Shown: positions 1,602 through 59,677 of the stretch, in pieces
Numbering within the stretch: position 1 is the first letter of the stretch
How the letters are laid out: each line of letters starts with the position of its first letter
DNA from: a virus
Taxonomy: Duplodnaviria > Caudoviricetes
IMG/VR virus record: IMGVR_UViG_3300014205_000174
DNA length: 64,000 nt
Reading direction: 5' to 3' (one strand)
Program-made: the position numbers and the translations under genes
The notes under the pieces: model-generated
Told to the model about the DNA's origin: nothing
The model's database searches: none
Seen by the model: only the letters and a program-made list of their open reading frames with translations

Positions 1602-1902
1602 GCTTGGTTTGTTTTAAGATTTAAACTATTTTTTTTATTTACTTCACTTTATCCCTTCCTGGATAATCATCCAGGAAAACTAAAATATTGTCAATGTTAT
1701 CAATCCTTTCTGCATTATCGGTAAGTTGCGCCTGTATTATCTTCTTCTCCTCCCCGCGCAGAAAATAGTCTTCGTCAAATCTGTTTTTACCCATTGTGTG
1801 TGATGTGATTTTTATGAATTCACTTTCCTTGTTTGTTGCACCTACTTTTTCATGCTTTAATTTCGTCTCCTTACCAAGGATAGTCAGGTAAGAGAGCGCA
1901 GT

Positions 1903-2169
1903 GTTGTAACTACCTTTTGAATGACCTGCAATTATAGTATTGCGACTTATTGTCTGGTTACTTAGTTCTAAAGGGTTGTAACTACCTTTTAAATTACCGA
2001 CTCTCACAACTAAATTTACCGCCAGGGGTTTTATTGTCCAGTTGTAACTACCTTTCAAATTAGGGCCTGCTACAACACATATTTTAATTGCCTGTTTGCA
2101 ATAGTAGTTGTAACTACCTTTCAAATTAGGGCCTTTTACAACTACTGACAGGGTAGCTATCATCTATCA
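1903..2169 (-). CRISPR. Mini-CRISPR array C: 3 intact 36-nt repeats, 1 degenerate repeat, 4 spacers
   Basis: Repeats at 2107-2142, 2041-2076, 1975-2010 and degenerate 1903-1938 (- strand e.g. GTTGTAAAAGGCCCTAATTTGAAAGGTAGTTACAAC); spacers of 27, 30, 30 and 36 nt. Confidence 0.92.
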
Positions 2170-5757: not shown

Positions 5758-5990
5758 GAGTAAACGGATTAAAAATTGTCGGCAGCATCGTGGCCCTGGG
5801 CAATACTTCCGGGATTATATGACTTTGAGCTATTCTTATGAACAGATACGACAGCTACGCTTACAATAGCTATCAATAAAACCACTACCAGCAAGTCCGA
5901 CCGTCCCTCTTTAGATAATTTAATGTCCATGATTCAAATTTTACATAAAGATACTGATTACGGATAAAAATAACATCAACTACATTGTTT

Positions 5991-6585: not shown

Positions 6586-8436
6586 TTAATAGACCTCGGG
6601 AAACTCCCGTACTGCAAATTCTTCGGGGAATTCGTTGATATCACTACCATGCCGCACTTTCATGCCCATTTTCTTACCAAGGTAAGTGCCCATCTGTTTT
6701 ATAAACACAGGCACGCCGGCTCTTTTACATTGCTGGATAATCTCGCCTATCCAATGACCCTCACAGGGCCGATATCCCCACTTGCCTATCTCGTTGCCGC
6801 TCTCCCCGCCAACAATAACCCAATGAATAAGCGTATAAATGCCTACATAGCCATGACCCCAGTCTTTTGGCGCGGTACCCAGCAGGCCCAAGTTAAGCGG
6901 GCTTAATAATGGCTCACAACTCAGGAAGCGGACTTTCGCCGGTACCTGGCATAGTAATGGCACCCTTTCCTCTGCACGTTCCTGATTCTCCACACTGGTG
7001 CCAAGCCATACATTTTCCCAACCATCACCCCAGTCCGCCGGTAAGTGTTCTAGAATTCGCTCCGGATGCTTTGTGAGTATTTGAAAGATAAGATGAGGAC
7101 ACTTGCGGATAATGTCCCAGGCCTCATGCCTAAAGGAATCAATTTCCGGGTGAAAGAAATCGGTGAGTGACGATGTAAACACCAGTGGCCTGCCACCCCA
7201 TGCCTCAGACTTAGTGCCCTTGTACTTCAGGGGCATATTGAATGTCGCAGGAGCCGTTCTTTTCACAATGCGACCATCATACTTAAACCTGTCACCCTCA
7301 CGCATCATATAGCAATTGTGAACTATAAATCCATTAGCTACAAATGTTTTTGAAGAGGTCTGTATATCAATCAACTCAGTTTCCCCAATATATTTTATGC
7401 CGTAAATAATTTGGTGGTTGGTAGCGGTTCTTTGGCCAGTAACAATGCAGTTTCTTAATAATGCCGGAGTAACTGTTGTAAAAAAATTTACTTTTTCAAC
7501 CAACCCACCGTGAAGAGTAAACACATTGCTAGCATAGCTGTATTTAAACCCCAGTTTATCCAGGCTTTTTGATATATTATCAACTACTTCCTTATTTGCG
7601 ACTACACCCTGAGCAATTCTTAAGGCATTAGTTCTTAATTTTTCGCGTTTTTTGGATTTATACGTACTCATATTCCCCTCTGCGTCAAACATTCCGGAAA
7701 TATAGCCCCTATGCCAATCTATGTCGTCTGTTGGATTATTATAACATTCCAATATTTTACTCAAAACTGGCTGGCTGCGGCTCTCAACTTTATTTATTTT
7801 AGTTTGCCCCTCCTCCGCACTAAATTCCTTTATGTCAAGCACCATATTGAACAATACTTTACAATATAGTACCACCCTGTCAAGTATTACTGTATCACAC
7901 AAAGCAATACGCCAATAACACTGTGGCGATTCCTTCTTCCATACGCTACCCCAGTCCGGACTATATTTGAATGTGCCATCTCCGTCAGTGACGCCAGCGA
8001 TATACCCTTTCATAAAAGTCTCAGTTATTGAATTCCCCTCGTATACATTCAATACATTAAGCTTCGTTTTTGAAACTTTGAGCAGGCTTAACGTCTTCCA
8101 TGGATTTCTTATTCCCAGAGAAAGGAATGGGTGGTCTTCGCTACACACAATTGTTCTGCCATTAGCTATACTTATTTCGAAAGCTGGCTTTACCACGCGA
8201 GATATCGCTTCAACGGTTGCGATTTCAAATTCTCTATATTGATTCGAAGCGTATTCCTGCACGGAAAAAACCTTGTCCCCTACTTGCAGCTCTGACATTT
8301 TTTTCCTTGTATAGTCCGCCATCAATATTATACTATCAGGGTGCAAGCAATTTTTACACCCTTCACTTTTGGGCGTACATCCCCTTGCAAGGTTATAAGT
8401 GATGTCTGTCCACGGTATGTTGGTTCTTGTTCCCAT
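6586..8436 (-). CDS. DUF5131 (phage Gp37/Gp68-like, radical-SAM-related) protein containing an intein
   Basis: TNIPWTDITYN..RGC....EGCKN/CY, SLTDFFH, FQILTKHPER, NVWLGTSVENQ, RFLSCEPLL, WVIVGGESG, VPVFIKQMG. Confidence 0.88.
   Translation of the reverse strand: MGTRTNIPWTDITYNLARGCTPKSEGCKNCLHPDSIILMADYTRKKMSELQVGDKVFSVQEYASNQYREFEIATVEAISRVVKPAFEISIANGRTIVCSEDHPFLSLGIRNPWKTLSLLKVSKTKLNVLNVYEGNSITETFMKGYIAGVTDGDGTFKYSPDWGSVWKKESPQCYWRIALCDTVILDRVVLYCKVLFNMVLDIKEFSAEEGQTKINKVESRSQPVLSKILECYNNPTDDIDWHRGYISGMFDAEGNMSTYKSKKREKLRTNALRIAQGVVANKEVVDNISKSLDKLGFKYSYASNVFTLHGGLVEKVNFFTTVTPALLRNCIVTGQRTATNHQIIYGIKYIGETELIDIQTSSKTFVANGFIVHNCYMMREGDRFKYDGRIVKRTAPATFNMPLKYKGTKSEAWGGRPLVFTSSLTDFFHPEIDSFRHEAWDIIRKCPHLIFQILTKHPERILEHLPADWGDGWENVWLGTSVENQERAEERVPLLCQVPAKVRFLSCEPLLSPLNLGLLGTAPKDWGHGYVGIYTLIHWVIVGGESGNEIGKWGYRPCEGHWIGEIIQQCKRAGVPVFIKQMGTYLGKKMGMKVRHGSDINEFPEEFAVREFPEVY
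7315..8349 (-). mobile_element. Intein (345 aa) with LAGLIDADG homing endonuclease
   Basis: Starts CLHPDSIILMAD, block B CSEDHPF, two motifs GYIAGVTDGDG and GYISGMFDAEG, ends TFVANGFIVHN followed by Cys. Confidence 0.92.
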
Positions 8437-11558: not shown

Positions 11559-11573
11559 GCAACAATCGTGCCA
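11559..11573 (-). promoter_or_regulatory. sigma54-type promoter upstream of the DnaA-C-like gene
   Basis: TGGCACG-ATTG-TTGC. Confidence 0.8.
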
Positions 11574-15969: not shown

Positions 15970-16041
15970 GCGCACGTAGTTTAATGGATAGAACTCGGGC
16001 TTCGGAGGCCGGCAGTTTGGGTTCGATTCCCAACGGGCGTA
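15970..16041 (+). tRNA. tRNA-Arg(TCG)-like gene, possibly degenerate
   Basis: GCGCACG-TA-GTTT-AATGGATA-GAAC...CTTCGGA...TTGGG-TTCGATT-CCCAA-CGGGCGT-A; perfect T-arm, one acceptor mismatch, imperfect anticodon stem, no encoded CCA. Confidence 0.6.
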
Positions 16042-16152
16042 CTATGTCACAAATGTAGGAAGTTGTATTTATGTGACCAAATAAAAATCATTGTTCATAA
16101 TTTCCAAAATAACTGGAAATATTTTTACTATTTCCAATAAAATGCACAAATC

Positions 16153-16197: not shown

Positions 16198-17082
16198 ATG
16201 AACAGGTTAAGCATTGCAGACAGGACTAAGATAGTTAGATTGTTGGTTGAGGGTAATTCTCTCCGTTCCTGCTCCCGGATAATGGACGTATCCATAAACA
16301 CAGTAACCAAGTTACTGGAAAAGGTAGGTGCCGCCTGCCTGAAGTTCCACCACGAGACCGTTATAAACGTGCCTGCAAAGCGGGTTGAATGTGATGAGAT
16401 TTGGTCGTTTGTCTACGCCAAAGAGAAAAACGTACCGTATTGCACTAAGCACGATGACACCAAAGTTGGCGATGCATGGACATTCGTAGGAATGGACGCT
16501 GATACCAAACTGGTTGTTTCCTGGCTTGTAGGTTGCAGGGATGCTATATCCGCAAATGATTTTATGCTGGAAGTATCAGCGAGGCTGCGCAACAGGGTGC
16601 AGCTTACTACCGATGGCTTTAAGCCTTACCTGAGAGCAGTAGAAACTGCATTTGATGATGAAATAGACTTTGCCCAGCTAATCAAGATTTACGGAGCCCC
16701 GGAAGGTAATGGTACGGAGAAAAGGTATAGTCCGGCAAAGTGTACAGGAATCGAAACTAAGCGGGTGTCTGGCGACCCAGACCCAGCATTCATATCTACC
16801 AGCTACATAGAGCGTCAAAACCTCACTATGCGTATGCAAATGCGTCGCTTTACGCGTTTGACCAATGGCTTCTCAAAGAAGATGGAAAACCATTGCCACG
16901 CTATAGCGCTGCACTTTGTTTACTGCAACTTTGTAAGAAGGCATACAACCCTGCGCGTAACACCAGCTATGGCAGCAGGATTAACAGACCGCTTTATGAA
17001 GCTTGAGGATATTGTATGCATGGCTTATGCTGATGAAATAGCACAGGAAGAAAAAATCAGAGCCAGATATAGGAGGGCGTAA
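16198..17082 (+). CDS. IS1-family DDE transposase
   Basis: N-terminal HTH (EGNSLRSCSRIMDVSINTV), VECDEIWSFV, LTTDG, TSYIERQNLTMR...RFTRLTNGFSKK, TPAMAAG. Confidence 0.9.
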   Translation: MNRLSIADRTKIVRLLVEGNSLRSCSRIMDVSINTVTKLLEKVGAACLKFHHETVINVPAKRVECDEIWSFVYAKEKNVPYCTKHDDTKVGDAWTFVGMDADTKLVVSWLVGCRDAISANDFMLEVSARLRNRVQLTTDGFKPYLRAVETAFDDEIDFAQLIKIYGAPEGNGTEKRYSPAKCTGIETKRVSGDPDPAFISTSYIERQNLTMRMQMRRFTRLTNGFSKKMENHCHAIALHFVYCNFVRRHTTLRVTPAMAAGLTDRFMKLEDIVCMAYADEIAQEEKIRARYRRA

Positions 17083-24128: not shown

Positions 24129-24143
24129 TGGCACGGGATTTGC
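24129..24143 (+). promoter_or_regulatory. sigma54-type promoter heading the gene run that ends in the cas12f-like gene
   Basis: TGGCACG-GGAT-TTGC. Confidence 0.85.
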
Positions 24144-25942: not shown

Positions 25943-27094
25943 ATGGCTGAAAAACGTATAGTTATTACCCGGAAAGTAAAAATAGACTTTGACGTTGCCG
26001 ACAAGGCCGCATTAAAGGAGTGCTATAATACCGTGTTCTCATGGAACCGGATAGTGCACAAGGCCGCAAACTGGATAATCACGCACCAGTACATGCAGGA
26101 AAACGTAAAGGACTTCTTCTACATTACAGATGCGATAAAGCTGAAGCTGGCCAACATCGACAAAGACGAGGACGGCATACTCACCACCAGCAAGGACAAT
26201 ACCACCTACCAGTTGCTTAGCAAAGCATTTAAGGGGGAATGCCCGATGGGTATGCTATCCGGCCTTAATACGGTTGTGTGCAAGAAATACAAGTCCGATG
26301 CCTTCAAAATAAAGAAAGGCGAAGTCTCCCTTGCCTCTTACCGCAGAAATATCCCTATGCCCATCCGGAGCGCGGATATCTCTTCCTGGGAAAAGCAAAG
26401 TGATGGCAACTATTCATTTTTCGTATACGGCCTGGCTTTCAAAACATGGTTTGGCAAAGACCTGAGCGACAACCAGTCAATATTCGACCGCGCACTGCAA
26501 ACCGGCGAGTATAAGCTTTGTGATTCATCCTTTCAACTGGAAAAGAAAGACGGTAAGTGGAAGATGTTTTTCCTGGCAGTATTCTCCTTTGACAAGGAGC
26601 TTGTTAAGGTGGATGAAAATAAAGCCGCTGTTTGCCGGCTTAGTATACAATACCCGATTGTTATTGCAGAAAAGAAAGACAAGTTCTGGCATATCGGCAC
26701 CGCTGAAGAATATATGCACCGCAGGCTGGCCATACGCGGCGCTTTACACAGGGTTCAAAAAGCCTGTAAGTATAATAAAGGGGGTAAGGGCCGGGACAAA
26801 AAGCTACATGCCATAGAGCGCTTTGAAGACGCTGAAAGCAATTACATTAATAGCCGCATGCACCTTTATAGCCGACAGCTAATTGATTACTGCATAAAGC
26901 GCGGTATCGGCAAGATTGTACTCGACAACTACAAGGAGGTTGTTGACAAGACACATCAGGAGAATGAGGAAAGTAAATTTTTGCTGAGCTCATGGAGTTA
27001 CTTTAATTTAGCTGATAAAATAAAATACAAGGCTGCAAAAGTGGGCATATTGGTGGAGATGGAAGGAGACCCGGAGCCCGAGCCAGTAATTTAG
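25943..27094 (+). CDS. Nuclease-dead Cas12f/TnpB-like RNA-guided DNA-binding protein
   Basis: ITRKVKI N-terminus, G..SL.SYR, YKLCDSS, bridge-helix region RRLAI...GGKGR.KKL, H.YSR.LIDYC, WSYF.L.DKIKYKA...GI.V; RuvC-I position reads CRLSIQYP (no Asp), RuvC-II region IVLDNY; protein ends before the Zn-finger/RuvC-III; directly followed by scaffold and CRISPR array. Confidence 0.85.
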   Translation: MAEKRIVITRKVKIDFDVADKAALKECYNTVFSWNRIVHKAANWIITHQYMQENVKDFFYITDAIKLKLANIDKDEDGILTTSKDNTTYQLLSKAFKGECPMGMLSGLNTVVCKKYKSDAFKIKKGEVSLASYRRNIPMPIRSADISSWEKQSDGNYSFFVYGLAFKTWFGKDLSDNQSIFDRALQTGEYKLCDSSFQLEKKDGKWKMFFLAVFSFDKELVKVDENKAAVCRLSIQYPIVIAEKKDKFWHIGTAEEYMHRRLAIRGALHRVQKACKYNKGGKGRDKKLHAIERFEDAESNYINSRMHLYSRQLIDYCIKRGIGKIVLDNYKEVVDKTHQENEESKFLLSSWSYFNLADKIKYKAAKVGILVEMEGDPEPEPVI

Positions 27095-27106
27095 TTTGTT
27101 TTTCAG

Positions 27107-27232
27107 TAAGTTCTTTGACATAATATTTTGTGGGGCGGTTGTACGTCCTTGGCGGGAGGGATTCTTTTCCACTCCCGAATACTTTTTTTATTTTTTAATG
27201 ATATTTGCCTTTGTTTGAAAGGTAGCTACAAC
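27107..27232 (+). ncRNA. Guide-RNA scaffold copy A (tracr/omegaRNA-like, fused to a half-repeat)
   Basis: Starts 12 nt after the cas12f-like stop; hairpins GGGGCG-GTTGTA-CGTCCT and CGGGAG..CTCCCG; anti-repeat TTTGCCTTT pairs with half-repeat AAAGGTAG; three copies in the window. Confidence 0.85.
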
Positions 27233-27424
27233 GGTAAGCCGTCGTCTACGGGCACTGTGAGTTGTAAATGACCAGGATTTGAAAGGTAGCTACAACCTTA
27301 GTCGCACAAAAGGGAGCGACCTGCATGGCTGTAAAAGACCGGAATTTGAAAGGTAGTTACAACAACCAGAGGATAACGGTTTCACGATATTGTGAATGAC
27401 CATAATTTGAAAGGTAGTTACAAC
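27214..27424 (+). CRISPR. Mini-CRISPR array A: half-repeat, 3 full repeats, 3 bounded spacers
   Basis: Half-repeat 27214-27232; repeats 27261-27296, 27328-27363, 27389-27424; spacers of 28, 31 and 25 nt; a possible 4th spacer up to a GTTGT remnant near 27453. Confidence 0.93.
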
Positions 27425-27461
27425 GAATGGTAACGGTTTTACTTAAACAGAAAGTTGTTTT

Positions 27462-27677
27462 ATGAATAATGTGCGAAAAATTGGTCGCTGTTTTAATGGG
27501 GCCGAAAGAGACGGAGGAAAGACGGTACATGCTATTGACTCCGAAAAGCCAAATGGAGACTGGTTTGGGAAGGCCGTTTGCGGAACAGAACCAGGGTATC
27601 GGGGAAACGGCTGGGCGAAAACAGATAAACCAGTAAGTTGTACACGGTGTATAAATAAAATGGCGAAACGCACGTAG
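27462..27677 (+). CDS. Small Cys/His (Zn-finger-like) protein between arrays A and B
   Basis: VHAI...AVCG...W...VSCTRC. Confidence 0.55.
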   Translation: MNNVRKIGRCFNGAERDGGKTVHAIDSEKPNGDWFGKAVCGTEPGYRGNGWAKTDKPVSCTRCINKMAKRT

Positions 27678-27693
27678 AGCGTGTGTGGCTTTT

Positions 27694-27818
27694 TAAGTTC
27701 TTTGACATAATATTTTGTGGGGCGGTTGTACGTCCTTGGCGGGAGGGATTCTTTTCCACTCCCGAATACTTTTTTATTTTTTAAGGTATTTGCCTTTGTT
27801 TTGAAAGGTAGTTACAAC
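27694..27818 (+). ncRNA. Guide-RNA scaffold copy B
   Basis: Nearly identical to 27107-27232, ending in TTTGAAAGGTAGTTACAAC. Confidence 0.85.
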
Positions 27819-28092
27819 GATTAATAGTTCAAGTTCACTGATTTTTAGTTGTATAAGACCATAATTTGAAGGGTAGTTACAACACATAAGCTACTACAAG
27901 AAGCATTTTCACTGTTGTGAAAGACCCGAATTTAAAAGGTAGTTACAACGTACATTCATTGGGCTAAATTTTGATTTGGCTGTAAAAGACCCAAATTCAA
28001 AAAGTAGCTACAACTAAAGCAGTGATATAAAACATCATGGGCCTGTGTTCACGTTACGTGAACGACCATTAAACCAGTTTAAGTAGCTACAC
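27800..28092 (+). CRISPR. Mini-CRISPR array B: half-repeat, 3 full repeats and a degenerate terminal repeat
   Basis: Repeats 27848-27883, 27914-27949, 27979-28014; spacers of 29, 30 and 29 nt; remnant AAGTAGCTACAC at 28081-28092. Confidence 0.92.
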
Positions 28093-56229: not shown

Positions 56230-57042
56230 TTACACTTCCAAAGTAGGACTGTAATTTAGTGTCATTTTCGTAAATATGCAGCACTGCCTCAACATCATTT
56301 TCATCATTTTTATCGAAAGTATAAAAAAGTTCCAATTTATACTGATTCCCATTATCAAACTGAAGTGTTAAATACAGACTAGAAGAGTCGGTTAATGATG
56401 CCATAAAGTTCTTGAATTTGTACATTCTGAACTCATCGACCGTCCTACTTATGTAATGACGAATGTGCTTGATATGCTGTTGGTCTTCGTCAGCAATCAT
56501 GTTGAACTGCTTATTGATAGTGGAATATGCAATTCCTTTAAGAAGATTGTTTTGCTTAACTCCTTGTTATTAGATAACGTAATTGTTATCGTTTGCTCTC
56601 CCGATTCTATTTTTTTCACGGCCTCTTTATATTTTTCAGCATCATCTTTATTAGACAAAATTTGTCTTACTTCCTCACTCATAACATCAAGGTCGTTACT
56701 AAAAAATGAATTAATAACACTCCTCAATGCACCCGATATCTGTGTCAGAACAACTTTCATAATAAGTATGGTAAATAAACTATGCCATCAAGCGGCTGGT
56801 CAAATATAATATCTTTCTACCCACATTTCCAATAGCTCAAACGTTGTAACTGGCCAAAAATTGCAAAATGAGTTGAAATTTAACCGTTTTTTTACCTCAA
56901 GATGCTTAATGGTCGCACTAATTATTTACCATGGTGGTATCTGGAAAGCTCCATGACAGTACCCGAGCGGTACTGTCATGGAACTTGTGTTTTGCAGTTT
57001 TACTATATACCATTACGTTTGCATTGTACCCAAACTTTTGCA

Positions 57043-57783
57043 ATGAGATACTATATGTTTATTGATGAAAGCGGAGAGGCGAACATTACAAATCCAGACC
57101 CGCGATTTAATATATTTGTTCTGTGCGGGGTTATTTTTCGAGAAGACTGTTACCATACATTCAATCAACGATTCAAGGATATTAAGAACAATATATTTGG
57201 CAAAGAGGATATAGTATTTCATTCAGTTGAAATGAGGCCAAAGAAAGGAGTATTCAAAATTTTCTTGGATAAAGGGATTCTGGATAATTTTTATTTAGAG
57301 ATTGACGATATACTTAAAAATTGCGATTACCATATTATTTCCTGCGTTGTAAATAAAGAAAAGTACAAAATGGTCTATCCGGAAAAAAACCACGCTTATG
57401 AAGACGCCCTAACGTTTATATGCGAACGTGGGATTCATCTGATGGGAAGCAAAAACCGGCAAAACGTTTTGCATTTTTGCTTAGAAAAACGAGGAAAAAG
57501 CAAGGATGCGCAAATAAAGAAATACTACACTCGGTTTCTAAAATATGGGACTCAATATGTCAGCACCTACGACTTCCAATTGTGTCACCCTCATTTGCAC
57601 TTTCGAGGCAAAGACGAGAACATAAACGGGTTGCAACTTGCCGACTTAGTTGCATACCCTATTGCCCGAAAAATTCTTTCCCCCGAAAAGCCACAGCTAA
57701 CATTTAATATTTTTGAAGAGAAGTTATATTGCGGGAGCAATACCCGCTCCTATATTGGATGGGGTATAAAGCACTTCCCCTAA
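57043..57783 (+). CDS. DUF3800-family protein
   Basis: YMFIDESG, FHSVE, GLQLADLVAYPI; likely start ATG 57043. Confidence 0.85.
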   Translation: MRYYMFIDESGEANITNPDPRFNIFVLCGVIFREDCYHTFNQRFKDIKNNIFGKEDIVFHSVEMRPKKGVFKIFLDKGILDNFYLEIDDILKNCDYHIISCVVNKEKYKMVYPEKNHAYEDALTFICERGIHLMGSKNRQNVLHFCLEKRGKSKDAQIKKYYTRFLKYGTQYVSTYDFQLCHPHLHFRGKDENINGLQLADLVAYPIARKILSPEKPQLTFNIFEEKLYCGSNTRSYIGWGIKHFP

Positions 57784-57846
57784 ACGGTGAAACCTCAAAT
57801 TAATGAGGCTTCCCTACGGCAAGGCATCCGCCTGACACGTATTCAG
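57780..57846 (-). ncRNA. Candidate DUF3800-associated antisense small RNA
   Basis: Minus-strand TATCTTTG promoter motif near 57846-57853, followed by a short structured sequence ending in hairpin gaagcctca-ttaatt-tgaggtttc, convergent with the DUF3800 stop. Confidence 0.45.
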
Positions 57847-57955
57847 CAAAGATAGACGCATTTTCTTAAAATTCGATTTGTTTAACAAAATACCGTTATT
57901 TAACGGTATTTTGCTAAACTTCTATTGTATAGCTTTGCCTGTAAACTAAACACTT

Positions 57956-59122
57956 ATGAAGAAGTATTTTCCAATATTGGTATCAAAACTCGGTGAAATA
58001 AAAGCCTTAGAATGTTTGACGCAAGCAGCGAAGGAAGAAATATCTCCCGTTATCGAGTTAACCCCAGATATGTTTTTGGATGGATGGACTGAGAAGAAGA
58101 AAAACGCTGAAGCTGCTGCCGATGAAAAAAGAATGAAGAATAACCTAGACCCTATTGACAGAACTGCACGTAAACAGAAAGGTTATGAAAACATATTACT
58201 TACAAGCCTGAAAAAACATTGGATATTTCCTGATAACCAGATTCTGTTAGATTTTACCCATTGCGGCCTCACACTGCCTCGATATATATCTGAATTTCTA
58301 GCAGTCCTTAACTCAAGTAACATTAATGTAGTTCCGGTTGTATCTGCGACAAATTCACAAGATATCATCGATTTAATTTTAAAATTCGTGACTGAAAATG
58401 ACAGGCCTATCTGCCTACGTTTTGATTCGAATAATTTCGATAAAATATCTGAGCAAACCATTTTTGATAATCTCGTCACATCATATAATGTCAATAGAAA
58501 CCGTGTTATGATTTTGTTGGATGGCGGATATATTGAGGGGCACACTTACGAAATGTTTAAAAAATACACCTTAGAAGCCCTAAGCAGTCTGCCGAATACT
58601 AACGACTGGCGGGAGATTATTGTTAGTTTTGGTTCATTCCCTAAAGACCTATCAGATAGTAGCCTAGTCGCAAGAAAGGAACCACATCTACTTAAAAGAC
58701 ACGAGTGGGTAATATGGCAGGACATTAAGAAAGCAAATGCATGCGGCGGAAGGGTTAGATACAGCGACTACGGAATTAAGCATCCCGCATATGAAGAAAT
58801 AGGGTTTCCAGGCACTGCAAGCATAAAGTACAGTAGCGAAAATAATTTTGTCATTTATAAAGGCAAAAAATCGGGTGAAACTAAGTTAGGTAATGCTCAA
58901 TATATTATGCATGCGAAGGAACTAGTAACATCCGAATATTATACTAATGAGCACTTTTGCTGGGGGGACGAAAATATTATGGAATACTCAAAGAAAAGCC
59001 CAGAACCAACGCCAGCTAAAAAACCGGAAGGAAAACCCAAAAGGCCGGAATCTGGAGCCGCCAAAGAATGGATAGCATTTGGTCAAAATCACCATTTAAC
59101 TTTAATGAACAGCTTACTTTAA
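57956..59122 (+). CDS. Beta-family (T4 beta/Sce7725-like) protein
   Basis: YFPIL..K.GE..AL..L, GSFP.DL, R.EW..W, YSDYGIKHP, CWGD..I, W.....NHHLT. Confidence 0.8.
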   Translation: MKKYFPILVSKLGEIKALECLTQAAKEEISPVIELTPDMFLDGWTEKKKNAEAAADEKRMKNNLDPIDRTARKQKGYENILLTSLKKHWIFPDNQILLDFTHCGLTLPRYISEFLAVLNSSNINVVPVVSATNSQDIIDLILKFVTENDRPICLRFDSNNFDKISEQTIFDNLVTSYNVNRNRVMILLDGGYIEGHTYEMFKKYTLEALSSLPNTNDWREIIVSFGSFPKDLSDSSLVARKEPHLLKRHEWVIWQDIKKANACGGRVRYSDYGIKHPAYEEIGFPGTASIKYSSENNFVIYKGKKSGETKLGNAQYIMHAKELVTSEYYTNEHFCWGDENIMEYSKKSPEPTPAKKPEGKPKRPESGAAKEWIAFGQNHHLTLMNSLL

Positions 59123-59134
59123 GGCAGATTAAGG

Positions 59135-59677
59135 CTATCTTCTTTTCAAAATTTCACGTACAGATGCGGAGAGTGCGTCAATGTCTAAACTTTCGGATAA
59201 TAGCTCACACATATTCCAAACTCTATCGGATTTATAGAACGGAATACCGTGCTTATGAAGCACGGATATAAGCTCTTCTTTGCATAAAAGTTTGGCTATA
59301 AAAAATCCGTTTTTCGAAGGGTTTATGCCTCCTTCCTTTTCAACTTTATATTCCACCTCATCAGGACAATCGGAGCAAATTGCAACAGATACCCAGTCTG
59401 GAGTTATTGTTTTTATTTTTTCAATGTATCTCTTTTCCGTAACTACGGTCAAATAGTCAAAAACATTTGAGTATGCCAATAGCTGGTTTGGTAGGCGATT
59501 TAGAGTGTCAACTGCACTCTTAATCTCATATCCATGAAATGCACCATTAATAACAGCCATATCAATCCTAGCCCCCGCAACGGGCAATTTCATTTCCTCT
59601 ACAATCTTATCAATGTTATTAGTGTACTGCTGCAATTCTGTGCGTTTCAGAATCTCCCTAATGGCTGGGTCTTTCAT
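59135..59677 (-). CDS. Sce7726-family protein (PD-(D/E)xK-like)
   Basis: D..IR, EE.....ARIDMAVING.FHGYEIKS..DTL.RL..Q...YS.VFD. Confidence 0.85.
   Translation of the reverse strand: MKDPAIREILKRTELQQYTNNIDKIVEEMKLPVAGARIDMAVINGAFHGYEIKSAVDTLNRLPNQLLAYSNVFDYLTVVTEKRYIEKIKTITPDWVSVAICSDCPDEVEYKVEKEGGINPSKNGFFIAKLLCKEELISVLHKHGIPFYKSDRVWNMCELLSESLDIDALSASVREILKRR

Follow-up and report, generated by a model that had tools for sequence, protein, structure and literature searches.

What would a phage do with a dead Cas12f-like gene and its own supply of guides? The DNA analyzed here (hereafter the window, 64,000 nucleotides or 64 kb) belongs to a 211-kb phage-like genome that carries such a gene together with about 13 guides in three small cassettes. 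A sequence-only reading of the window had suggested that a virus uses this protein to bind DNA rather than cut it. We address in turn the protein, the RNA that adjoins it, the branch of the family to which it belongs, and the readings that these permit.

A nuclease-dead Cas12f on a phage-like genome

The dcas12f gene (25943–27094, plus strand) encodes a 383-aa protein with a REC/WED region and a truncated RuvC domain. Its best solved match is the nuclease-dead Cas12f of F. taeanensis (Fta; PDB 9N9C, E 6.5e-81, 40% identity), and its nearest active relative is Al3Cas12f (E 6.8e-38). An AlphaFold model (mean pLDDT 80) matches 9N9M in Foldseek with a TM of 0.73; the best Foldseek matches are Cas12f, and Cas12m and TnpB rank 24 or lower. 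The Cas12f/TnpB-like assignment made earlier is thereby confirmed as Cas12f by sequence and by fold, and the closest matches of either kind place the protein outside Cas12m and TldR. Mapping the catalytic triad onto active Al3Cas12f (9NZO), one of the checks that had been proposed, puts Arg232 at the position of the RuvC-I Asp and Asp328 at that of the RuvC-II Glu. Homology to Al3Cas12f ends at residue 372–373 and only an 11-aa tail without Cys pairs follows; the protein therefore lacks both RuvC-III and the Zn finger, as the first reading had it. An Asp at position 232 is found in none of 114 homologues, position 328 varies among them (N, E, D, K), and the longest homologue tails inspected contain no CxxC. 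The window protein thus has neither the D-E-D triad nor the Zn finger of active type V-F Cas12f, and combines a Cas12f-like sequence and fold with an inactivated RuvC and a C-terminal truncation that is shared by more than 40 relatives at >50% identity. It keeps the TAM-pocket residues Y89 and S106 when compared with sigmaE-linked dCas12f, as well as the lid Phe (Fta F337, here F346). Judged from sequence and predicted fold, it is a member of the natural nuclease-dead Cas12f family. In a comparison with a sediment relative (~90%–93% nucleotide identity), third codon positions account for 37 of the 40 listed differences, so the gene is conserved rather than decaying, and this substitution pattern indicates that it is under purifying selection.

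Gene content and relatives indicate that the carrier is a phage, as had been proposed, although no capsid or terminase gene was recognized within the 64-kb window. The surroundings of the gene had been described as free of cas1/2/4, sigma-factor genes, and transposase ends. This holds for the 93 window ORFs, among which there is no cas1/2/4 or sigma family, and for the dcas12f locus itself, which has no transposon ends and no adjacent rpoE with a CTD extension. A profile search for dCas12f-sigmaE, taking up the suggestion to look for a sigma factor past the locus, found no match in the window plus 20 kb of flanking DNA (84 of 211 kb). One correction is needed: an IS1-family transposase gene lies 9 kb upstream of dcas12f (16198–17082), with a tRNA-Pro just upstream of it (15970–16042), but it is unrelated to the dcas12f locus.

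Several other features of the genome were recorded. Sites of the sigma54 type (TGGCAC-N5-TTGC) occur 11 times in the window, at 11573 (minus strand), 18484, 20964, 22175, 24129, 29346, 30650, 38174, 44961 (minus strand), 45950, and 61810. Most of them stand directly 5' of genes, and the one at 24129 heads the gene run that contains dcas12f; a sigma70 promoter scan gave matches at chance level. A cluster of DUF3800, Beta-protein, and sce7726-family genes (56902–59677) looks like a cargo or defense island. About 2.2 kb past the window end, the same genome encodes an IS605-type TnpB (L322:12838–14037) whose catalytic motifs and Zn finger look intact and which is only distant kin of the window dCas12f.

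Three cassettes and their scaffold RNA

Two 89-nt leaders, at 27107 and 27694, are 98% identical and are each followed by 36-nt repeats at 61–67 nt spacing, which bears out the two scaffold-plus-array units already recognized behind the gene (scaffold A 27107–27232 and scaffold B 27694–27818, leaders included). Cassette A opens with a boxA-like antitermination element, the 13-mer also found before 23S rRNA, 15 nt after the dcas12f stop codon (27109–27121, plus strand). The scaffold proper (27130–27232, plus strand) comprises hairpin 1 with a pseudoknot loop, hairpin 2, an anti-repeat, and a fused 3' half-repeat, and runs into array A (27233–27453, plus strand; spacers A1–A4; full repeats 27261–27296, 27328–27363, and 27389–27424). 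Between cassettes A and B lie a 71-aa singleton ORF (27462–27677, plus strand), probably an ordinary phage gene, and then a hairpin with a T-run (27668–27696). The leader of cassette B (27696–27818, plus strand) has its boxA at 27696–27708, the scaffold core at 27717–27781, and a fused half-repeat; array B (27819–28092, plus strand) holds spacers B1–B4, with repeats at 27848–27883, 27914–27949, and 27979–28014 and a decayed terminal repeat at 28057–28092. A scan for the 3' end of the repeat revealed a third cassette, C, on the minus strand 24 kb from dcas12f (2293–1873). Its leader (2170–2293) has boxA at 2293–2281, the scaffold core at 2272–2208, and an altered fused half-repeat, and its array (1873–2169) holds spacers C1–C5, with repeats at 2142–2107, 2076–2041, 2010–1975, and 1938–1903. 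Gene finders call a 174-aa ORF through array C (1639–2163, minus strand) that is probably spurious.

With four spacers in A, four in B, and five in C, the genome encodes 13. The first reading had counted at least ten different guides; arrays A and B alone supply eight, and the figure is reached only with cassette C. Read depth in the source run is 107 over the shared scaffold start, 68 over the piece common to A and B only, and 34–35 over unique DNA, which means that the genome holds exactly three near-identical cassettes. The 3' half of the repeats is nearly invariant and the middle of the 5' half is variable, and spacers A4 and C5 have no clean downstream repeat. With degenerate repeats and decayed terminal units, part of the guides may be dead. 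In a phage-like relative (L270:11150–13407), the dCas12f gene is followed by a single scaffold and 33 or more spacers.

The 13-mer that heads each cassette occurs 15 times in five Bacteroidota genomes (once for the reversed control), and 9 of the 15 occurrences are in the 16S-23S spacer just before the 23S rRNA, the usual place of boxA, an element that counters Rho termination by recruiting NusB/NusE. On this evidence, the element is boxA-like and appears to be that of Bacteroidota rRNA operons. Two related phages have a second boxA (at L003:14483 and L093:10303) at the start of a long stretch that contains neither genes nor arrays and may be another structured RNA.

No Rfam or Pfam model was found for scaffold or protein. 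The scaffolds fold better than expected (z −3.4 and −4.3) and match their covariance model at E values of about 1e-23, where A and C were in the training set and B is nearly identical to A. Across 21 relatives, 98.5% of the cells in the two scaffold hairpins are paired, with 52 compensatory cells (0 of 500 shuffles; slid controls <49%). The last six bases of the repeat can pair with the loop of hairpin 1, which predicts a 6-bp pseudoknot, and the two segments covary, with four loop-repeat combinations seen (GTTGTA-TACAAC, GCTGTA-TACAGC, GTTGTG-CACAAC, and GCTGTG-CACAGC). [quoted passage not shown] In 14 relatives, a short anti-repeat 3' of hairpin 2 changes in step with the repeat. A predicted extra hairpin can sequester the fused half-repeat, which leaves the cis half-repeat partner of the scaffold ambiguous. 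Taken together, the covarying loop, the anti-repeat, and the invariant 3' half of the repeat suggest that the scaffold reads as a tracrRNA inside the array transcript, and that a structured guide scaffold with its guide 3' of the repeat is predicted to adjoin the dcas12f gene. The covariance model of the scaffolds also detects guide RNAs next to rpoE-linked genes, so the guide RNA is homologous across the dCas12f family.

A branch without sigma factors

We compared 114 proteins in a FastTree phylogeny (midpoint root; the Fta sequence itself is outside the tree). The window protein falls in a 44-member clade (SH support 100) whose members with known context lack rpoE and mostly lie among small unannotated genes. 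The rpoE-linked proteins form a separate clade (support 99), and most of the chromosomal loci fetched have rpoE directly upstream of dcas12f. Sigma-less relatives include IMG/VR viruses, among them a 77.6-kb member of the same clade scored 100% by CheckV (L090); a 371-kb contig (L272) on which dcas12f, scaffold, and array adjoin genes for the Gp23 major capsid, a prohead protease, and ribosomal protein bS21; Prevotella prophage-like regions with up to four scaffold-array cassettes (L081, L074, L076, and L088); and one Chitinophagaceae MAG. The Prevotella cassettes are scattered among replication genes, a design like that of the window genome.

The resemblance to sigmaE-linked dCas12f noted in the first reading is therefore correct at the level of the family but not of the clade, and the sequences differ at positions where the sigma factor is presumed to bind. 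In dCas12f-sigmaE systems, hydrophobic residues of RuvC form the docking site of the sigmaE CTD. Positions 227, 243, 328, 336, and 372 are hydrophobic in rpoE-linked proteins; they are charged in the window protein and mostly charged or polar in its clade, from which we infer that the sigmaE docking face is probably absent. The tail after the last motif is 6 aa long in 28 of 28 rpoE-linked proteins and 6–39 aa in the window clade, and the lid region shows 65% identity within the window clade versus 29% to rpoE-linked proteins. Together, the separate sigma-less clade and the changes at the presumed docking residues make repression far likelier than activation. Among rpoE-linked loci, those of Parapedobacter (L065, L060, L049, and L082) have long arrays, with 10–25 or more units of the repeat family seen here, and one P. 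luteus query segment has a 31-nt match, at 94% identity, in its own chromosome.

The spacers give little direct indication of what would be bound. The search for targets in Bacteroidota genomes and phages that had been recommended came back empty: none beyond chance for the 13 spacers in the window plus 20 kb of flanking DNA (84 kb of phage), for the spacers in INPHARED phages, or for those of arrays A and B in PLSDB. Exact IMG/VR scans with A1, A2, B3, and C2 gave no target, and a single 17-nt A1 match does not extend. Samples of Chitinophagaceae, Sphingobacteriaceae, and the whole phylum (200–300 Bacteroidota genomes) yielded matches at chance level only, promoters included, and the arrays of five relatives (L010, L065, L081, L092, and L270) no convincing foreign target. 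Two candidates were at chance level: 14 nt of C1 that match an amidohydrolase gene in two related genomes, and a 22-nt match to the 3' part of B1. The host and the rivals of the landfill sample are probably absent from the searched collections. Spacer content changes from one close relative to the next. In the sediment relative, one spacer equals B3 over exactly its first 9 nt and then diverges, as expected if selection acted on the 5' seed only. In the complete 77.6-kb phage, a spacer (7574–7602) matches the phage's own gene (5759–5787) at 28 of 29 nt on the sense strand, and this gene is directly upstream of dcas12f. Autoregulation and local acquisition are both possible sources of the match, which speaks for a dead effector, since a cutting enzyme is not expected to tolerate it.

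Other readings of the locus fare less well. That the protein retains nuclease activity through a rearranged site is highly improbable: the acidic residue at 328 does occupy the RuvC-II position, but it varies among the homologues, the RuvC-I Asp is gone in 114 of 114, and RuvC-III and the Zn finger are deleted. The anatomy thus gives good support to the earlier phrase "bind, not cut". Nor is the locus likely to be a decaying relic of a captured type V-F system. Its degenerate repeats, the altered half-repeat of cassette C, and the lack of spacer targets in our searches would fit decay, but divergence is biased to synonymous sites, relatives by the dozen carry the same truncation, and the scaffolds are almost identical in three cassettes with a structure that covaries.

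Slightly more weight, still small, attaches to activation in trans, in which the phage protein would recruit a CTD-bearing sigmaE of the host (or from elsewhere on the phage genome) and transcription would start ~46 bp downstream of the TAM. The closest solved relative is an activator, Chitinophagaceae and Sphingobacteriaceae carry rpoE-dcas12f loci that share the repeats and scaffold seen here, and the sigma search covered 84 of the contig's 211 kb. The lid Phe is kept too, but it is not diagnostic, being present also in active Al3Cas12f. Against activation are the sigma-less clade, the lack of a sigma gene in 84 kb, the hydrophobic-to-charged changes on the RuvC sheet with the free tail, and the need of the Fta protein for its cognate sigmaE (10.1101/2025.06.10.658880). 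We judge it about equally improbable that the protein is an RNA-guided platform for some other partner (nuclease, methylase, or recombinase) instead of a simple roadblock; Cas12k offers a precedent and the clade-specific conserved lid region could be a different docking site, but no conserved partner gene was seen beside dcas12f in the relatives, and the locus lacks transposon ends. The least improbable of these alternatives, though still unlikely, is a counter-defense sponge in which the dead protein and its scaffolds sequester host crRNAs or a host dCas12f/Cas12f, as has been proposed for a phage dead Cas9 with tracrRNA (PMC11656645). Repeats that match chromosomal arrays in Parapedobacter and others, and three scaffold copies per gene, would suit a sponge. 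However, the phage maintains a changing set of its own spacers next to each scaffold, and the host arrays with matching repeats serve dead effectors, leaving no cleavage to block.

Proposed silencing and its relation to known systems

We consider it probable that the locus is a phage-borne, cleavage-free derivative of type V-F that performs natural multiplexed CRISPR interference, RNA-guided DNA binding blocking transcription and host adaptation enzymes providing the spacers. Expression, loading, binding, and repression are here modeled on the F. taeanensis system. Each cassette would be transcribed within a phage operon, where boxA could recruit host NusB/NusE and let the non-coding stretch escape Rho termination. 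The scaffold would act as a built-in tracrRNA whose anti-repeat and 6-bp pseudoknot catch the conserved 3' half of the repeat, so that the next spacer becomes a 3' guide. The ratio of one scaffold to four or five spacers may be the reason that the phage duplicates whole cassettes rather than extending one array. A dCas12f dimer would then bind DNA beside a short 5' TAM, using about the first 14 nt of the spacer, as the F. taeanensis dCas12f does, and a complex without nuclease or sigmaE would block RNA polymerase (or replication) at the target. New spacers would be supplied in trans by host Cas1-Cas2. Granted silencing, rival phages or plasmids seem the leading candidates for targets, the host chromosome a somewhat weaker one, and the phage's own genes the least likely.

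More tentatively, and with slightly less than even confidence, phage dCas12f may form a widespread, as yet undescribed lineage that carries out adaptive multiplexed CRISPR interference. Host adaptation enzymes would fill scattered boxA-scaffold-array cassettes, a dozen host genes (e.g., for defense or a receptor) or rival elements would be silenced at once without cutting, and the lineage would also preserve a tracr-plus-array stage that preceded the single-guide sigmaE activators. A path from a dead Cas12f with an array to a tracr-half-repeat fusion has been proposed (PMC10691335); with a tracr-like scaffold, a fused half-repeat, and full arrays in one transcript, the proposed succession, in which active Cas12f gave rise to dead array-guided forms and these to sigmaE activators, becomes testable. 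If silencing is confirmed, a 383-aa protein and a ~100-nt scaffold would give phages natural reprogrammable gene silencing, and with it a new way to control hosts or other phages, and would offer a very compact CRISPRi chassis with native multiplexing.

The nearest known systems are the dCas12f-sigmaE RNA-guided transcription systems of Bacteroidota (Hoffmann et al. 2026, PMC13472631; Xiao et al., 10.1101/2025.06.10.658880; Sigma-TnpB, PMC10691335), which share with the window locus the protein family, the C-terminal truncation, the repeat family, and a homologous scaffold. The window locus differs in having no rpoE or hth neighbor, in its separate clade and phage-like carrier, in the charged residues on the presumed sigmaE face, and in its several boxA-scaffold-array cassettes with changing spacers in place of fixed single guides. 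The first of these papers (Extended Data Fig. 1a,b) also outlines a distinct cluster of putative dCas12f proteins near CRISPR arrays, without rpoE and with covarying guide RNAs upstream of the arrays, for which a putative repressor role is proposed. On that description, the window clade is likely the same cluster, both having a dead Cas12f, no rpoE, and a guide RNA upstream of the array. A dead effector with multi-spacer arrays, which the sequence-only reading had called unusual in a phage, is already on record, and is common among the relatives found here. The passages concerned report bacterial genomes and MAGs and an efflux-promoter target, and do not speak of phage carriage, dispersed cassettes, or boxA. 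Our literature search found no publication on a phage-borne natural dCas12f, and no experimental work on any member of the sigma-less clade.

Cas12m (subtype V-M) offers a functional parallel: a type V effector found on mobile elements, it is guided by arrays and silences through binding without cleavage (PMC11656645). It is nevertheless larger and of a different lineage from the window protein (Foldseek identity 7%). Cas12m is tracr-independent and processes its own crRNA. TldR proteins, dead TnpB derivatives that are in some cases prophage-borne, likewise repress under RNA guidance with a dead RuvC, but they derive directly from TnpB, unlike the window protein. They use a single omegaRNA guide and are not known to have arrays. 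Active Cas12f1 (Al3Cas12f and AsCas12f) resembles the window protein in fold, dimer-type architecture, and tracr-plus-crRNA logic; compared with it, the window system has lost the catalytic Asp, RuvC-III, and the Zn finger, has no adaptation genes in the window, and has its tracr-like part fused into the array transcript. What is new here is a phage-borne, sigma-less, multi-cassette form of a recently described kind of dCas12f.
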